Positions 6,546 through 17,900 of a stretch of DNA of 38,860 bases are shown here, in pieces. The translations under genes and the position numbers were made by a program. Position 1 is the first letter of the stretch; each line of letters opens with the position of its first letter. Source of the DNA: a virus (lineage: Duplodnaviria; Heunggongvirae; Uroviricota; Caudoviricetes); the IMG/VR virus record IMGVR_UViG_2713896899_000004; one strand, written 5' to 3'. A model generated the notes under the pieces. That model had not been told where the DNA came from. It did no database searches and saw nothing but the letters and a program-made list of their open reading frames with translations.

Positions 6546-7286
6546 ATGAGCCAAATCTTTTTCGATACCATCGACAACGACCAGTACGACTTCATGACAG
6601 AGTGGAATACCGCTGTTATGGACAAGTGGGTCGCTGAAAACATTGGTTTGTCGCGTTGCAAAGACGAGGCTGAACTCTTCGAGACAAAGTGGTTTGATTA
6701 CCGCGACATGCATCCTCTGATGGCCACCTGTCTTTTTACGGAGGCATACAAACGTCAGTACTCAAATATCATGCTGACGCACGGTCGCGAACACTTTGAA
6801 ACAGCTCCGTTCACCACCGGGTTAAAACGTCTGCCTTATCAGGAGTTGTCGACTGCCAATAAAACGTCGCTATGGAAAGCACGCCAGTTTGCTGACCGCT
6901 ATTGCTGCTCATACGACTACTTTATTTCCACCGTTCTTTCCGCAGCAGCACGACGTTTGTGGGACAAGTTGCCGCGCCCACAACATTTGTGGCAGCCAGA
7001 GTTGATTGAGATATTCGAAGAGAAATTAGCCAGACGCGCAACAACCCGTCTGGATGACTCTCTGGTTAGCTTTAAGCATATGGGAGACATGCAGTTCAAC
7101 CCGATTCAGGAAAGCTATTTTGAGTGGATTCTGGAGCGTTTACGCACCATCCCCCGCAGCAAGCGCATACGCGCAATTTTCTCCGCTATCTGGCTAATGG
7201 AAATCGTTCCAGAGCGCCTTATTTCCGCCCACTTTCCAGAAGAACTGGAAGAAGCACGGCGGTTTATTGATCCCCTATCTAATTAA
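6546..7286 (+). CDS. Hypothetical protein (first gene of the replication block)
   Basis: ATG at 6546 with RBS aggtga 6 nt upstream; 246 aa. Confidence 0.5.
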   Translation: MSQIFFDTIDNDQYDFMTEWNTAVMDKWVAENIGLSRCKDEAELFETKWFDYRDMHPLMATCLFTEAYKRQYSNIMLTHGREHFETAPFTTGLKRLPYQELSTANKTSLWKARQFADRYCCSYDYFISTVLSAAARRLWDKLPRPQHLWQPELIEIFEEKLARRATTRLDDSLVSFKHMGDMQFNPIQESYFEWILERLRTIPRSKRIRAIFSAIWLMEIVPERLISAHFPEELEEARRFIDPLSN

Positions 7287-13167: not shown

Positions 13168-13454
13168 GCAATTTAACTTCTTGGGAATGGTGGTTGGCCA
13201 CCTATTTCTTAGCGGCCGGAGTCGCATTCGCCTTTTACGTAGGTCAGTTAGTCGTAAAACTGTTGCTGATTAAATTTGCTAGTCATAAACGTATCGATGA
13301 TGGTCTGTGGCGTCTTGGCACCCTGGTGGAAACTCGCTACGGGCAACTTAAGGAGAACGAAACCATTACTATCCAAGCGAAACGATTCACTGCCACCATC
13401 ACAAGAACACCTAGTCGTAGAGTGGCCTTGATCAAAAAAGGCACAACCGAATAA
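13164..13454 (+). CDS. Small membrane protein
   Basis: N-terminal TM helix (WWLATYFLAAGVAFAFYVGQLVV); translationally coupled to upstream ORF. Confidence 0.5.
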   Translation: MSNLTSWEWWLATYFLAAGVAFAFYVGQLVVKLLLIKFASHKRIDDGLWRLGTLVETRYGQLKENETITIQAKRFTATITRTPSRRVALIKKGTTE

Positions 13455-13460
13455 AACACA

Positions 13461-13486
13461 ATGATAAGTATTTACTTACTTATCAT
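13461..13486. promoter_or_regulatory. Perfect dyad atgataagta-N6-tacttatcat (operator- or promoter-like)
   Basis: 10-bp arms are exact reverse complements; member of a dispersed ATAAGTA/TACTTAT family. Confidence 0.5.
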
Positions 13487-14246
13487 TTACGTATAAGATG
13501 ACTTTGTTTTCGTTGAGACGCGACTGTTTGAACTTAAATACAAGTGCAAACGAAGAAGTCTATCTGGCAGTAGCCTAATAAGCCAAACACCAGCGAGGTC
13601 AGTTTCCAGCCTCGTTACCGAAATGGGACACACTGAGCGAGTGTGATTGCAGAACGCAGGATAGGGCATAGACAGCCAAACCACTATGCCCTATTCGATG
13701 AAGTAACAGAATGGGCGGTTGGTATATTTTCAACTCCATATGACTCCCGGATTCTTAGCCACTGACCGCCCATCCTGTTACGTCATTTTGTTCAATTATG
13801 TCGTTTATACTGGGTTAAAAAGCGGCGACGTAGCCCGGCTGGTATGGTTAGCCAGCACACAACGTTGAGGCCATTACATTTTTATCAATTCTAAGGTTCT
13901 ATTCACAGAGATACCGGCGAGCGTTGATATGTAACATGTTGGGCAAACATTCAATCGGAGTAGTGGCCTCAACGTTGTGAAGACAGGATAGTTGTTGTAG
14001 GTTTAACCACTGTTGCCATTGGTGCCTGTTTTCACAACAAATGATTCCATACATCACATTGTATAAATTACAAAGTAGGTGCTGTCCTCAGAAACATCAT
14101 CTACTTAAAGAATTTGCCTTCTACTATTGAGCGAAGTCGAAAGCGTCTGGCACTAACGAAAAGTGCAAGTAGCGGTGCGTTTCCTGGCAGAAACTAAACC
14201 GTCGCGATTGGCACTGTTGAGTAATAAATACTGGCAGTGCCGAATT

Positions 14247-14321
14247 GATGGTGTAGCTCAGCGGTAGAGCAGTTGGCTGTTAACCAACTGGTCGGTGGTT
14301 CGAATCCACCCACCATCGCCA
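14247..14321 (+). tRNA. tRNA-Asn (anticodon GTT)
   Basis: Hand-folded cloverleaf: 7-bp acceptor gatggtg/caccatc, anticodon loop ctGTTaa, T-loop ttcgaat, 3' CCA encoded; differs from the E. coli tRNA-Asn sequence. Confidence 0.8.
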
Positions 14322-14323
14322 AT

Positions 14324-14399
14324 GCCGGTTTAGCTCAGTTGGTAGAGCGCCTGCCTTGTAAGCAGGATGTCAGCGGTTCGAGTCCGTTAACCGGCACCA
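14324..14399 (+). tRNA. tRNA-Thr (anticodon TGT)
   Basis: Acceptor gccggtt/aaccggc, D-arm gctcagttggtagagc, anticodon loop ctTGTaa, T-loop ttcgagt, CCA encoded. Confidence 0.8.
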
Positions 14400-14623
14400 A
14401 TACAACGATAAGATCATTACGGTTAATCGTCGTTCATGTGCACAATGACTGGTCGAAAGGTAGTGATCTTACCGTTGTGGTGGATTCGCAGACTGATGCG
14501 ATAGCTTTCTTGGATGTTAGGGAAATGCGGCCGCAAATCTTCCCTTTCGCGAGCGGTGATCGTCCGTAGTCCTAATTGGCTGCACCGTATGCCGGAGATT
14601 CAGTACCGGCCACCACAACGGCC

Positions 14624-14710
14624 GGAGAGTAGGGAGCATGGTGCTCAAGCGGTCTTGAAAACCGCCCCATTGCGCAAGCGATGATGGTTCGATTCCATTA
14701 CTCTCCGCCA
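14624..14710 (+). tRNA. tRNA-Ser (anticodon TGA), class II with long variable arm
   Basis: Acceptor ggagagt/actctcc, anticodon stem-loop gcggt-ctTGAaa-accgc, long variable arm, T-loop ttcgatt, CCA encoded; D-arm slightly irregular. Confidence 0.65.
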
Positions 14711-14712
14711 GA

Positions 14713-14790
14713 CACAGCGTTGAGCGGTTTGGCCTTTTAATCACCCAGATTAAGACTCCGCTAACATAAACCAGACCGCTCAACGCTGTG
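14713..14790. repeat. Long hairpin (about 20-bp stem, 38-nt loop) immediately 3' of tRNA-Ser
   Basis: cacagcgttgagcggt (14713-14728) is the exact reverse complement of 14775-14790. Confidence 0.6.
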
Positions 14791-14864
14791 ATTGACAATT
14801 ACGGCAGACGTTCTTAACCATAGCTTGCTAACATCCTAGCAACACTTTTTTCAGCGCAAAATTC

Positions 14865-14887
14865 AAAGGGGCTTCGGCCCCTTTTTT
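14865..14887. terminator. Bidirectional rho-independent terminator
   Basis: aaaggggc-ttcg-gcccc-tttttt; closes the tRNA island on the plus strand and the minus-strand ORF 14903-16165. Confidence 0.65.
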
Positions 14888-14902
14888 GTTGAACAGTGCA
14901 AT

Positions 14903-16165
14903 TTACTTTACATAGTCGCCCAGTTTTAATATTTCGCGCTTATATTCTTTAACCATGTCACAGGATTCAATGTAAATTCGATGTAAAAGACTGCCGTTAT
15001 CTTTATTTTCATTTATCTTAATTAGTGCTAATTTATATTCATAGTCATCAAATGCCACAATTAAATGGTGGCCTGGGATTATATCTTCGTCACTCTTAAA
15101 GTATATATCTTCAAGTATGTAATCTAGTTGATTAGATTTTCTTTTCTCGATGTAATCTTCAGCCATAGCTATTACATCATTCCTGTCATTTAACCTGTTT
15201 TTTTCGGAAGGCACATCTTCGTAATGTTGCACGATTGAACAACCAATAAGGCGTGGGATGTAAACGTCAAAATGAGTAACTCTATCATTCGCGGTTTTAA
15301 GTAGTTCCTCAAAGTAGTTTCTTACATGTAAAGGCAACTTCTCAAAGTAATCATTAATTATAGGAGAACAAGGAGTTTTATAATTCATAAGAACCGACGG
15401 TACGAGCTTTGGGTGTCGAAACATCCAGTCCCTTTTAACGTCCGATGGAACATAATAACTTTTAATGATATTATCAAAATAATTTATCATTCGAGATTTG
15501 AATATTTTGTTGAATCTAAGGTTTATGAATGTATCCAGATAAGGCATATTTGAATAAGCATCATCAAAAAATATTTCATCATTGAAAAAATCATATTTAT
15601 TCAATAAACAACACAGTTTTTCCGAATTAATATGTTCACAATAATCGATTTTTAATCCAAAGATAGCAATGATCAACTTCATCTGAGGTGGGATTTTAAA
15701 AATTAATTGTGACACATACGCTCTTTTTTCCTTGAGACATTCCCCATCAATATAAAATGAACCATCCACATACTCAAATATATTAATAATATGCTTCACA
15801 TACTGTATTACCTCATGCTGTCTTACCAATGGGTAATATAGTCTATGTAACTCATCGCTGTTTAAATTAATTTTGTGTTTATCGATAATTTGTTTTGCAA
15901 GAAGACATAACTCATCATGTTGATTTAATAAGGAATCAAACCATTGTTTAAATGCACTCTTTCGCATTTCGAACAATGATTCAGTTGTTAATTGAAGGGC
16001 TGAAAAAGCTGCTTTTGCACTTTTTCTCGCTTCGTAGGCATTCCATGCTGTTGCTATAAAAGCAAATGCTGTAGCCAATGTTCCAACAGTTTGACCATTT
16101 AAAACAACCCAATCCCAAAAAATGACGGTGAGCAGTAGTATAATAATGAAAATTAAAAAAGGCAT
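14903..16165 (-). CDS. AT-rich membrane-anchored protein of unknown function (candidate defence / abortive-infection cargo)
   Basis: 420-aa ORF on the opposite strand from almost all other genes; N-terminal hydrophobic helices then a large Asn/Lys/Tyr/Phe/Ile-rich soluble domain; strongly AT-rich; own terminator. Confidence 0.55.
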   Translation of the reverse strand: MPFLIFIIILLLTVIFWDWVVLNGQTVGTLATAFAFIATAWNAYEARKSAKAAFSALQLTTESLFEMRKSAFKQWFDSLLNQHDELCLLAKQIIDKHKINLNSDELHRLYYPLVRQHEVIQYVKHIINIFEYVDGSFYIDGECLKEKRAYVSQLIFKIPPQMKLIIAIFGLKIDYCEHINSEKLCCLLNKYDFFNDEIFFDDAYSNMPYLDTFINLRFNKIFKSRMINYFDNIIKSYYVPSDVKRDWMFRHPKLVPSVLMNYKTPCSPIINDYFEKLPLHVRNYFEELLKTANDRVTHFDVYIPRLIGCSIVQHYEDVPSEKNRLNDRNDVIAMAEDYIEKRKSNQLDYILEDIYFKSDEDIIPGHHLIVAFDDYEYKLALIKINENKDNGSLLHRIYIESCDMVKEYKREILKLGDYVK

Positions 16166-16665: not shown

Positions 16666-16698
16666 AATGATTCCATACCTACTATGTATGGAATCATT
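16666..16698. repeat. Perfect palindrome aatgattccatac-ctactat-gtatggaatcatt upstream of integrase (candidate att or integrase-binding site)
   Basis: 13-bp arms are exact reverse complements; the core aaatgattccatac also occurs at 13012-13028 and 14037-14053. Confidence 0.5.
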
Positions 16699-16796: not shown

Positions 16797-17900
16797 ATGA
16801 AAAATAGCTTTGACAGAGCGCGCGCTGCGGAGAACACCTCAAAAGAGGCGATTGAGTATCTCGAAAGAGCATCTCAAATGCAGGCCGTTATGATCTCGCA
16901 GGTTAGCAATGACATGAGATTCTCGGACGCTTTCATGTTATTCACTCGCTTATCTCTGCTGATAACCAGACGTCGGCCAGAGATCGCTGTTCATTGTATT
17001 TTGATACATGTTTTGCCGCACATTGCCGATGTAAAAGTAAGTGACATTAATAGGTTCATGGTGAACCAGCTGGTCAACCCACTAATACTGGATGGCAAAA
17101 TTGTTATGGGCCGCCGCGTTTTCTCTCTGATGAAGCAGTTCCTTAGCTGGTGCGCCTTCCAGGGGATGATAGACGTGTCACCGTTAAACGATATGTCACT
17201 AAACAAAGTTGCCGGTGGCGCAAAGCCCACACCTCGCGAGCGGAAGCTGACCGACGCAGAGGTATGGGTGTTCTGGAATATATGGGACTACTTCAATGTG
17301 TGCGCTGGTACAAAATGGGCGGCCAGGCTGTGTCTTGTATCAGCAAGACGACCTGACGAAGTACTGCGGGCTAAAAAAAGTGAGTTCAATCTTAAGCGTG
17401 GAGTTTGGAATCAAGGCAAGAGAAACAAGTCAGCACGTGAGCATTCGCTGCCTTTAAGCACATTAATGCGCACATGCATTGAAGAGTTGTTCGAATACGG
17501 TAAAGACAGCCAGTGGCTCGTGCCTTCGAATAAAAAAATCGGGAAAGACCTTCCTATGTCTAAAGTGGCAATAGCCCAGGCATTACGTCGTATTCTGGAA
17601 CGACCAGAACTGATGGAGCTTGAGCCATTTACACCCCGAGATTTGCGCCGTACTGCGCGTAGTTACTTCCCAGCATTAGGCATAAGCCAGGAGGTATCAC
17701 GCAAAATCATGAACCACAGTCTTGAGGGGATAGATCGGGTATACGATCGACACGATTATATGGATGAGATGCGAGACGCCTTAGAAAGTTTCTCGACGTA
17801 CATCGCATCAATCGTAGAGCAACCGGATTTAGACGAAATTGACCACAAATTCAAGGGAGATCGTCTATCGACAGAGCTTATTCGTGTAAATTTTTCATAG
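16797..17900 (+). CDS. Tyrosine recombinase / integrase (P4-like C-terminal catalytic region)
   Basis: C-terminal FTPRDLRRTARS ... NHSLEG ... VYDRHDYMDEMR matches the Arg/His/Tyr catalytic pattern of P4-type integrases; N-terminus atypical. Confidence 0.65.
   Translation: MKNSFDRARAAENTSKEAIEYLERASQMQAVMISQVSNDMRFSDAFMLFTRLSLLITRRRPEIAVHCILIHVLPHIADVKVSDINRFMVNQLVNPLILDGKIVMGRRVFSLMKQFLSWCAFQGMIDVSPLNDMSLNKVAGGAKPTPRERKLTDAEVWVFWNIWDYFNVCAGTKWAARLCLVSARRPDEVLRAKKSEFNLKRGVWNQGKRNKSAREHSLPLSTLMRTCIEELFEYGKDSQWLVPSNKKIGKDLPMSKVAIAQALRRILERPELMELEPFTPRDLRRTARSYFPALGISQEVSRKIMNHSLEGIDRVYDRHDYMDEMRDALESFSTYIASIVEQPDLDEIDHKFKGDRLSTELIRVNFS

Follow-up and report, generated by a model that had tools for sequence, protein, structure and literature searches.

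A tmRNA-like tag module and conserved RNA hairpins in the tRNA island of an SSU5-like phage-plasmid

Why should about 1.4 kb of phage DNA that holds three tRNA genes and no convincing open reading frame (ORF) also carry several long, perfect inverted repeats? We address this question for positions 13455-14887 of the IMG/VR virus record IMGVR_UViG_2713896899_000004, a stretch of 38,860 nucleotides (nt) that we call the window and that we identify as an SSU5-like phage-plasmid. A first-pass annotation of this tRNA island, made from the letters alone, had pointed out the repeats and proposed that they might be tRNA-processing structures, a structured non-coding RNA, degenerate tRNA copies or integrase arm sites. 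Judged from the sequences of its relatives, the repeats are RNA helices on the plus strand, kept by compensatory changes and closing three cassettes. The most informative part of the island was overlooked at that stage. It is a module at 13506-13657 that resembles the message domain of transfer-messenger RNA (tmRNA) and that we refer to as the tag module. We consider it fairly probable that the island is a non-coding RNA operon of recurring cassettes, and that the first of these, the tag module, anneals to the host tmRNA and blocks or replaces the host tag.

The description on which the question rests is sound. ARAGORN and Rfam place tRNA-Asn(GTT) at 14247-14321 (Rfam 75.5 bits), tRNA-Thr(TGT) at 14324-14399 (Rfam 74.9 bits) and tRNA-Ser(TGA) at 14624-14710 (Rfam tRNA clan), all on the plus strand and all with an encoded CCA, and the tRNA-Asn/tRNA-Thr pair is ~92% identical to that of P1, P7 and D6. 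No ORF of at least 100 amino acids (aa) lies within 13455-14887, and the few of 52-98 aa overlap tRNAs or hairpins. An exhaustive search returned the three perfect inverted repeats at exactly the coordinates first given for them, namely 13858-13873/13964-13979 (16/16), 14472-14483/14610-14621 (12/12) and 14713-14728/14775-14790 (16/16). A second repeat search, which tolerates mismatches, lengthens both 16-mers to 20-nt arms at 95% complementarity (one mismatch) and adds five further pairs, whose coordinates are given below with the features that they form. These repeats exist and are not a product of chance. Shuffling the interval 1000 times with its dinucleotides preserved never gave arms of at least 16 nt (0/1000), and the three observed pairs with arms of at least 12 nt compare with a shuffle mean of 0.007. 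The motif CACARCGTTGAG is found in four copies in the window, all of them within the island (0.5 expected; four copies were reached in 0/100 shuffles), and the other perfect 12-13-nt inverted repeats elsewhere in the window are without it. Folded as RNA, the hairpins are much more stable than shuffled sequences (z -3.8 to -7.2).

The tag module (13506-13657, plus strand) was delimited by blastn of relatives, pattern scans and covariation. The relatives used throughout are phage records and IMG/VR contigs, whose loci we number L001 and so on (L001, Cyrano; L003, D6; L005, the Citrobacter phage Michonne; L127, P1). In a distant blastn search, part of 13455-14246, a stretch of ~100 nt, had matches in 317 phage records. 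These come from groups unrelated to one another, among them Felixounavirus, HK620/HK633 and Klebsiella siphoviruses, and in most of the records listed the match lies in unannotated DNA. None of the records examined annotates the module, those of P1, D6 and HK620 included. Inside it, GCAAACGAAGAAGTCTATCTGGCAGTAGCCTAATAA encodes ANEEVYLAVA (10 codons) followed by two stops, as the E. coli tmRNA encodes ANDENYALAA followed by two stops. This reading frame occupies 13546-13581 on the plus strand, from a resume-type GCA at 13546-13548 to the stops TAA TAA at 13576-13581. Two pattern scans with different anchors found well over 100 loci with 25 distinct tags, every one exactly 10 codons long and of the form A[NK][DES]xxxxx[AV]A, with a middle part that varies and with synonymous changes at third positions. 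Among these tags are ANDEQFLAVA, ANDDVVLMAA, ANEEMYLAAA, ANDSEMRVAA and, in both P1 and D6, ANDDLMMVAA. In all of 88 sequences an A stands at -4 from the GCA. A strict pattern recovered the module from only four species-representative genomes, all of them Enterobacterales.

Could this frame simply be an ordinary small ORF that is translated after normal initiation? The window would allow it: as far upstream as the predicted start of the transcript its frame is uninterrupted, and TTG codons occur in it. However, an in-frame ATG or GTG and a Shine-Dalgarno sequence are lacking, and in relatives the upstream frame is broken within a few codons, by an in-frame TGA six codons upstream in SSU5 and by an in-frame TAG in the group of sequences that we call class B. 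We find this explanation hardly credible. An alternative frame with ATG or GTG (MQTKK...) was considered and rejected, as its length and sequence vary and are not conserved.

Downstream of the tag codons the module has the folds that would be expected of a tmRNA message domain, all on the plus strand and all derived from covariation. The stop codons lie in a hairpin (helix 5, outer pairs 13564-13567/13590-13593), which is followed by pseudoknot a (stem 13593-13598/13610-13615, with a loop-to-downstream helix 13604-13608/13624-13628) and by pseudoknot b (stem 13629-13634/13640-13645, with a weak second helix 13637-13639/13655-13657). Among 87 distinct sequences the two pseudoknot stems are almost never broken, and each has 6-7 compensatory haplotypes. 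When helix 5 and both pseudoknots are taken together (alignment A2), 94.9% of cells are paired, compared with 28-46% for slid partners, and nine pairs show double changes; the observed value was reached in 0/500 shuffles. P1 and D6 keep both pseudoknots despite unrelated sequences. In the Felix-like locus L094, ARAGORN reports the same frame as the tag of a tmRNA. The sole Rfam match of the window's module is a weak one to beta_tmRNA (13527-13629, 17.3 bits, E=0.01, threshold 84), and relatives reach 20-30 bits with tmRNA_permuted (threshold 47). By these comparisons, 13506-13657 has the architecture of a tmRNA message domain that lacks the tRNA-like domain, with a tag frame under coding-type constraint, and the tag module appears as an unannotated, widespread, tmRNA-derived RNA.

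Where, then, is the acceptor part? ARAGORN finds no tmRNA in the window, and among the 42 loci on which it was also run it reads the tag frame as a tmRNA in one, L094. A scan of the whole 38.9-kb window for T-arms, acceptors and permuted order yields the three tRNAs alone. Inspection of the late leader of HK620 showed no tRNA-like domain, and the part of P1 that was examined gave no tmRNA call. All contexts share just one neighbour, a simple hairpin whose loop measures 3-13 nt in class A. These results bear on the idea that the module is the coding piece of a complete phage two-piece tmRNA whose acceptor is encoded elsewhere on the phage. That idea draws on the permuted tmRNA that ARAGORN reports in L094, on a permuted tRNA-like gene with CCA that lies ~530 nt upstream in Felix-like phages, and on the T-arm and ...CCA end that directly precede GUUUUCG in some class B loci. 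It would have to accommodate the results of these scans, the lack of a G3·U70 acceptor in the island and the A3:U70 of the Felix element, and we regard it as quite unlikely. Upstream of the tag we also looked for a fold like that of pseudoknot PK1 or a 5' helix GUUUU/GAAAC; no consistent fold emerged, the helix being possible in class B and missing from several lineages.

The permuted gene of the Felix-O1-like phages may be described in its own right. In Michonne (1924-1990) and in L094 a circularly permuted tRNA-like gene lies upstream of tRNA-Lys, ~530 nt 5' of the tag module, in the order T-arm GAAGG-TTCGATT-CCTTC, 3' acceptor strand ACCCTTC, G, CCA, 4 nt, its 5' complement GAAGGGT and a D-arm-like GTGTAATGGCAGCAC. 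It has A3:U70 and is absent from the other contexts scanned. ARAGORN fuses it with the tag into a 749-nt 'tmRNA*'.

In place of an acceptor strand, the module begins with a leader (13506-13529, plus strand) that is complementary to nt 82-104 of the E. coli tmRNA. The complementarity comes in two blocks. The first, GUUUUCGUUG at 13506-13515, pairs with tmRNA nt 95-104 (tag codons 2-5), and the second, GCGACUGUUU at 13520-13529, pairs with nt 82-91, which span -8 to +2 of the resume codon and include G90 and C91; together they give 20 bp, two of them G·U. The invariant 5' GUUUUCG and the GCGAC block are both complementary to the E. coli tmRNA. For all 67 distinct leaders (67/67) the best duplex falls on the same tmRNA region, which shuffled leaders hit in 2-11% of trials. 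The class B leader is nearly the exact reverse complement of tmRNA nt 68-104 (score 34 vs 14.8±2.2, z=8.9), and leader alignments reach z=5.2 for P1, 4.2 for HK620 and 3.9 for Michonne. One could ask whether the leader instead follows the codons of its own module. The 5' 9-mer pairs at 8.6/9 positions with the host codons GAC GAA AAC and at only 5.5/9 positions with the module's own codons 3-5, of which there are 29 versions, and the leader therefore tracks the host and not itself. The substitutions point the same way: in 11 variants outside class B, leader positions are invariant opposite a host A or C, toggle between C and U opposite G87 and toggle between A and G opposite U85. Read across these variants, this wobble-neutral pattern is the mark left by pairing with an RNA partner that does not change. 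On these grounds the leader probably pairs with the resume region of the host tmRNA. What the alignments describe is an extended complementarity to a single tmRNA site that appears to be maintained in evolution, and no antisense family against tmRNA is known.

We suggest that the RNA of the tag module anneals to host tmRNA where the latter is single-stranded, about its resume codon (nt 82-104), and that this annealing would mask the host tag template. The module would then most likely present its own template, and the host tRNA-like domain together with SmpB could drive tagging with a phage peptide, which would end in ...LAVA here and in ...VAA or ...MAA elsewhere. Such an arrangement would constitute a host-phage 'two-piece tmRNA'. 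The most economical model, in our view, has the annealed RNA either block host tagging or substitute its own template; the absence of a tRNA-like domain, the constancy of the leader and the constraint on the codons would all be explained at once. The further step, that the tag is actually substituted so that rescued proteins carry a phage C-terminal tag (...LAVA, ...LMAA or ...VAA) instead of ...ALAA, is put forward tentatively. With similar reserve, we raise the possibility that P1, HK620, Felix-O1-like phages and SSU5-like phage-plasmids all carry such a tag-swap RNA and thus a natural inter-genomic two-piece tmRNA.

Several observations weigh against parts of this model. The RNAduplex energy of the window leader (-26.3 kcal/mol) is equalled by 3/300 shuffles and is weak when taken alone; shuffles average -20 kcal/mol, and values of -28 to -31 against the same tmRNA segment are attained by many unrelated 25-mers taken from the window. 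We thus rejected this energy as a stand-alone statistic and used the consistency of the site and the substitution patterns instead. A wobble-aware alignment of the window's own class gives z ~1.6. The case for pairing rests on the site shared across lineages and on the pattern of substitutions, and these lineages are related, not independent. Within the module itself, GCAAAC offers an alternative partner for the UGUUUG of the leader, so a purely intramolecular role is possible. None of the Rfam tmRNA models is matched at its gathering score, and in pairwise nucleotide alignment the module is no more similar to E. coli ssrA than shuffles are, so that we claim no homology from pairwise alignment. 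Finally, stem matches with G3·U70 are scattered in the island and none has a T-arm; as the island has no G3·U70 tRNA-like domain, decoding of the tag would need an unprecedented trans arrangement.

Another explanation is that the module is just an antisense inhibitor or sponge of the host tmRNA, or else an RNA derived from ssrA that is not translated and serves as a decoy for SmpB, S1 or RNase R, with a frame that is never decoded. The complementarity of the leader to the resume region and the lack of a tRNA-like domain agree with it, and it avoids a separate RNA that supplies the template to tmRNA, for which no mechanism is known. It has difficulty with the coding-like character of the frame, that is, 25 variants of 10 codons with a fixed AN[DE] start, a fixed [AV]A end, a variable middle and synonymous third positions. 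Nor would a simple antisense RNA need the stop-codon hairpin and two pseudoknots that are held by covariation. We take this inhibitor to be a serious possibility, though a rather doubtful one, and continue to favor a module that would both anneal to tmRNA and offer a template.

The inverted repeats themselves we take to be RNA helices because of their compensatory changes, an asymmetry between G·U and A·C cells and their position at cassette borders. Relatives retain each of the hairpins and alter its two arms in concert. Directly after the tag module come two spacer hairpins on the plus strand, a perfect one of 11 bp at 13661-13671/13684-13694 and one with 22-nt arms (91%) at 13698-13719/13765-13786, and the region that holds both (13659-13786) folds with z=-7.2. 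Their stems vary in a compensatory manner, from ATAGGGC/GCCCTAT to AGAGGGC/GCCCTCT, GGGAAC/GTTCCC or GACGGTGGC/GCCACCCGAC, and the second hairpin has 15 haplotypes with 5 compensatory positions. The first repeat of the original description corresponds to hairpin H-A (plus strand), with 20-bp arms at 13858-13877/13960-13979 around an 82-nt structured loop and a closing CACAACG/CGUUGUG (-47.8 kcal/mol, z=-5.9). At 55 loci, H-A has 11 haplotypes and 3 compensatory positions, with a G·U to A·C ratio of 10:3 on the plus strand. A further plus-strand hairpin with 14-nt arms (13974-13987/14025-14038, fold z=-3.8) takes the GUUGUG of H-A into its left arm, so that the two pairings overlap and are mutually exclusive over 6 nt; its stem covaries in relatives, for instance as GTTGTGGCCACGG...CGTGGCCACAAC in L008.

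Hairpin H-B (14397-14420/14460-14483, plus strand, 24-nt arms at 83%, fold z=-4.8) starts on the CCA of tRNA-Thr and is homologous to H-A, with both arms altered together from TTGAGGCC/GGCCTCAA to ATAAGATC/GATCTTAC. Its alternative partner is the closing stem of the RNA that follows it, which we call module Z, and here the overlap is 12 nt. The third repeat corresponds to hairpin H-C, which begins 2 nt after tRNA-Ser (plus strand, 20-bp arms at 14713-14732/14771-14790, fold z=-6.6) and has 10 haplotypes, 4 compensatory positions and a G·U to A·C ratio of 12:4. The loop of H-C carries the motif AAGACUCCGCUAAC at 14752-14765, unpaired in the predicted fold, and both the hairpin and this motif are retained in the relatives L015 and L087, which are without tRNAs. 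Pooled over the hairpin haplotypes and oriented on the tRNA strand, the non-Watson-Crick cells comprise 35 G·U and 13 A·C, an imbalance of the kind that an RNA made from the plus strand should show. After each functional RNA of the island come (N)CACAAC and a long stem. The 3' strand of this stem terminates in GUUGUG, which can alternatively pair with the next CACAAC. H-A and H-C are members of a family of long spacer hairpins with CACAACG/CGUUGUG as their boundaries.

We note separately that AAGACUCCGCUAAC holds a CUCC core that is like an anti-Shine-Dalgarno sequence and may be the seed of a small RNA (sRNA).

Thus, of the explanations first proposed, a structured non-coding RNA with tRNA-processing structures was the right direction, and it can now be narrowed to helices conserved by compensatory substitutions that sit exactly at the borders of tRNAs and sRNA-like modules. 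The suggestion of degenerate tRNA copies holds for origin at most. Homologous hairpins in D6, in Carvaje and in several IMG/VR contigs enclose the T-arm GGGTTCGAATCCC, and class B phages have equivalent hairpins with conserved stems (CAGGUAAGAGCA...UGCUCUUUCCG) and wholly different loops, some of them with a tRNA T-arm. In the window, the T-arm scan found no T-arm in the hairpins, ARAGORN and Rfam found no match to a tRNA model in them, and by covariance model and ARAGORN a cloverleaf is formed by the three tRNAs and by none of the hairpins. We conclude that the hairpins look like cassette spacers, partly of tRNA origin. One may go further and regard them as decaying tRNA pseudogenes or as neutral remnants of cassette recombination with no present function, for which, besides the T-arms, the high variability of the loops between phages and an insertion or deletion at ACAAC can be cited. 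Against this stand the compensatory and wobble changes in 10-15 haplotypes of each hairpin, the retention of loop motifs such as AAGACUCCGCUAAC where the tRNAs have been lost, and the lack of tRNA features in the window's own hairpins, and we think such a lack of function unlikely.

The repeats might also act as DNA, as the proposal of integrase arm sites implied, be it as arm or attP sites, recombinase sites, operators, cruciforms or repeats of the miniature inverted-repeat transposable element (MITE) or repetitive extragenic palindromic (REP) type. A tyrosine integrase gene lies 2 kb downstream, CAACGTTG is itself palindromic, short direct repeats flank the cassette indel, and the palindrome at 13460-13487 may indeed be a DNA operator. 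Against this, the elements occur with other integrases or with none, as in the ban leader of P1 and D6 and the pR' late leader of HK620, and the spacers of 38-126 bp are unfit for core-type sites. The excess of G·U over A·C is confined to one strand, the tRNA strand, and CACARCGTTGAG is absent from the rest of the window, with no dispersed copies of the MITE or REP kind. The occurrence of the elements in P1/D6, HK620, Felix-O1-like and Carvaje contexts therefore speaks against any role tied to the integrase of this element, and a function as DNA strikes us as very improbable.

As RNA helices, the repeats could punctuate a precursor. The 20-22-bp stems at the cassette borders amount to about two helical turns flanking mature RNAs, as in stems cut by RNase III, and we propose that stems of ~20 bp would serve as RNase III-type cleavage sites or as structures that protect ends. 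Together with RNase P and 3' tRNA processing, they could release the individual RNAs. That RNase III itself takes part is purely our inference and is a weak point of the scheme.

The precursor in question would span 13460-14889 on the plus strand. The start is marked by a probable promoter with an operator-like palindrome at 13460-13499 (plus strand), delimited by a palindrome search and by comparison of hexamers with the consensus. A perfect 11-bp inverted repeat, 13460-13470/13477-13487 (AATGATAAGTA-N6-TACTTATCATT), overlaps the putative -35 region and is conserved in SSU5-like relatives; by analogy with Op72 before the P1 ban operon, it is probably a repressor operator. The -35-like TTTACT (13471-13476) and the -10-like TAAGAT (13494-13499) are spaced by 17 nt. 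In relatives a TAnnnT element (TAAGAT, TATGAT or TATAGT) stands at a fixed distance from GTTTTCG, and Michonne has a canonical TTGACA-17-TAAGAT at the promoter position. It should be held against the promoter that a consensus scan called none at its threshold and that the hexamers match just 8/12 positions. At the other end lie a weak terminator-like hairpin (TTGCTA 14825-14830/TAGCAA 14837-14842, T-run 14846-14851, plus strand), which is conserved in L008, L013 and L109 and has too few G-C pairs to be called by the terminator scan, and a strong terminator at 14865-14884 with a following T-run (to 14889, plus strand), which the scan did call. From the positionally conserved -10-like element, the called terminator, the lack of a credible ORF and the unannotated tag-module end, we infer transcription as one unit, and 13460-14889 looks like a single non-coding RNA operon. 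Its cassettes stand in the order tag module, two spacer hairpins, a conserved segment, H-A, the hairpin that reuses GUUGUG, tRNA-Asn, tRNA-Thr, H-B, module Z, tRNA-Ser and H-C. With the terminator downstream of it, H-C would resemble a 3'-trailer sRNA.

The conserved segment (13830-13857) reads ACGUAGCCCGGCUGG(Y)AUGGUUAGCCAGC, has a 5-bp hairpin (13838-13842/13852-13856) and is nearly invariant in the most distant SSU5-like relatives (L015 and L087). Long-range pairing between the 5' and 3' parts of the whole transcript was considered and rejected as not conserved, the candidate CGAAAA at ~14163 being CGTAAA in SSU5 and others.

Module Z accounts for the second of the originally reported repeats. 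It is a 150-nt multi-hairpin RNA (14472-14621, plus strand, fold z=-2.4) that ends 2 nt before tRNA-Ser, with a perfect 12-bp closing stem (14472-14483/14610-14621) around an interior of 126 nt. Its 5' hairpin is UCGCA-GACUGA-UGCGA, and its 3' hairpin, CCGG-AGAUUCAGUA-CCGG, lies directly against the closing stem. The closing stem covaries, as TTGCGGTG/CACCGCAA in a second copy in D6 and as GTTGTGATG/CGTCACAAC in L008. The second D6 copy has the same helix layout as the Rfam family STnc100 and scores 39.6 bits with it, below the gathering score of 47; the module Z of the window has no Rfam match at E up to 10, STnc100 included, which counts against a kinship. We therefore say that module Z resembles the prophage sRNAs STnc100 (RF02076) and PasD (bioRxiv 10.64898/2026.05.13.724894) and claim no membership. 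The tag module was also compared with PasA, and this identity was rejected, PasA being an 84-nt sRNA that bears a terminator (bioRxiv 10.64898/2026.05.13.724894).

The cassettes are not peculiar to this element. The window at 13400-14950 is 96-97% identical to the Escherichia phages CMS-2020a and Cyrano, and its flanking genes (helicase, primase, ligase, glutaredoxin, integrase, repressor, cobalamin) form the same set in Cyrano and SSU5. A 211-nt probe from the start of the interval is present in 258/5426 complete E. coli genomes, nearly always on plasmids of ~110 kb. In the E. coli records listed, which are mostly plasmids, the PGAP annotation has nothing under the match, that is, under the tag-module end of the interval. 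In P1 and D6 the same elements follow the C1-controlled ban promoter, in HK620 they lie between pR'/qut and the late terminator, in Felix-O1-like phages they are part of the tRNA cluster, and in the Klebsiella phage Carvaje they adjoin a lone tRNA-Ser. In P1 (1292-1580 of the locus) and D6 (2543-2720), the annotated 'dicF-like region' ends in a terminator, and the tag module starts immediately behind it, in the leader of the C1-repressed ban operon. By sequence, then, the cassettes recur in changed order in P1/P7/D6, HK620-type lambdoid phages, Felix-O1-like phages, Klebsiella siphoviruses and other SSU5-like elements. The block of H-B, module Z and tRNA-Ser (14462-14733) is 95.6% identical to that of the P1-like phages P7 and D6, whereas Cyrano, otherwise the closest relative, is without 14400-14623 and hence without H-B, and has ACACAATT alone between tRNA-Thr and tRNA-Ser (6987-6996 of its locus). 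The junction of the Cyrano indel lies at ACAAC repeats. The identity with P7/D6, set against the gap in Cyrano, points to an exchange of cassettes between phage-plasmid families that may occur at such short ACAAC repeats.

The neighbouring ORFs gave no clue to the function of the island. Directly downstream of the operon is a 420-aa ORF on the minus strand (14903-16165), which belongs to phrog_18168 (function unknown), has no Pfam family and has just a weak match to PtuB, the Septu nuclease (E=5e-4). Relatives have unrelated sequence with open reading frames at its position, which looks like a variable slot for accessory genes. The integrase gene follows at 16797-17900, and a perfect 13-nt inverted repeat with a 7-nt spacer (16666-16698), ~100 nt upstream of it, could be a terminator or an operator.

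What would these findings mean? The family of tag-module RNAs is conserved, unlabelled in the annotated records examined and below every Rfam threshold. If it pairs with the host tmRNA, as the way its sequence varies suggests, phages would target trans-translation directly at the RNA level. If the tag is decoded, the template of tmRNA could be supplied in trans by another genome, which would alter the present understanding of the resume-codon mechanism, and phage-specific degradation tags would be expected in infected or lysogenic cells; a swap of tags would be a new viral way to reprogram protein quality control in the host. Annotators gain defined cassettes, namely the tag module, the spacer hairpins bounded by CACAACG and the STnc100-like module, with which to label otherwise unexplained non-coding DNA by phage tRNA genes.

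Taken by themselves, the hairpins are of a common kind, as RNA punctuation within an operon of phage tRNAs and sRNAs. Structured RNAs other than tRNAs are co-transcribed with tRNAs and freed by processing in the case of the T4 species 1 and 2 RNAs (rnaC, rnaD) and the 3'ETS-leuZ sRNA, and in rRNA operons and T7 early transcripts long RNase III stems that border functional RNAs are processing signals. The trailer RNA of such tRNA operons, which follows the last tRNA and ends at a terminator, can be compared with H-C and the terminator here; the two have no sequence relationship, and CACAACG/CGUUGUG cassettes with overlapping alternative arms are not described there. Module Z shares with STnc100 and PasD a closing GGUG.../...CACC helix with GAAU and a 5' hairpin behind it, a short hairpin rich in G+C that abuts the 3' strand, and a location in a phage leader or tRNA region, but its interior is longer in the window (126 nt) and it ends at a tRNA 5' processing site, not at a terminator.

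A known setting close to that of the island is the leader of the P1 ban operon (NC_005856). There, as in D6, the tag module, hairpins and tRNA-Asn/Thr follow a repressor-controlled promoter, much as they follow a palindrome and promoter here; in contrast to the window, the P1 module comes after a DicF-like terminator and has the tag ANDDLMMVAA, and the annotation of the P1 record is limited to the dicF-like region and the tRNAs (trnA, trnT). In the literature searched, whose coverage is incomplete so that a description elsewhere is possible, we found no description of a phage tmRNA-like or anti-tmRNA RNA.

The tag module itself is best compared with tmRNA (SsrA; RF00023). Like tmRNA, it has a GCA resume codon without a start codon, an A/U-rich single strand before it in which the A at -4 is conserved, a short tag beginning with AN[DE] and ending in small hydrophobic residues and Ala, stop codon(s) in a hairpin loop (helix 5) and H-type pseudoknots immediately downstream. 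Unlike tmRNA, it is without acceptor stem, G3·U70, T-arm and CCA, has no consistent PK1-like fold upstream and two pseudoknots downstream of the tag, carries at its 5' end a sequence antisense to the host tmRNA instead of an acceptor strand, and has tags that mostly end in LAVA or LMAA, not LAA. In the two-piece and permuted tmRNAs (RF01849-51, RF04321), template and acceptor are separate, base-paired RNAs, and it is this arrangement that we propose the tag module may form with the tmRNA of its host.

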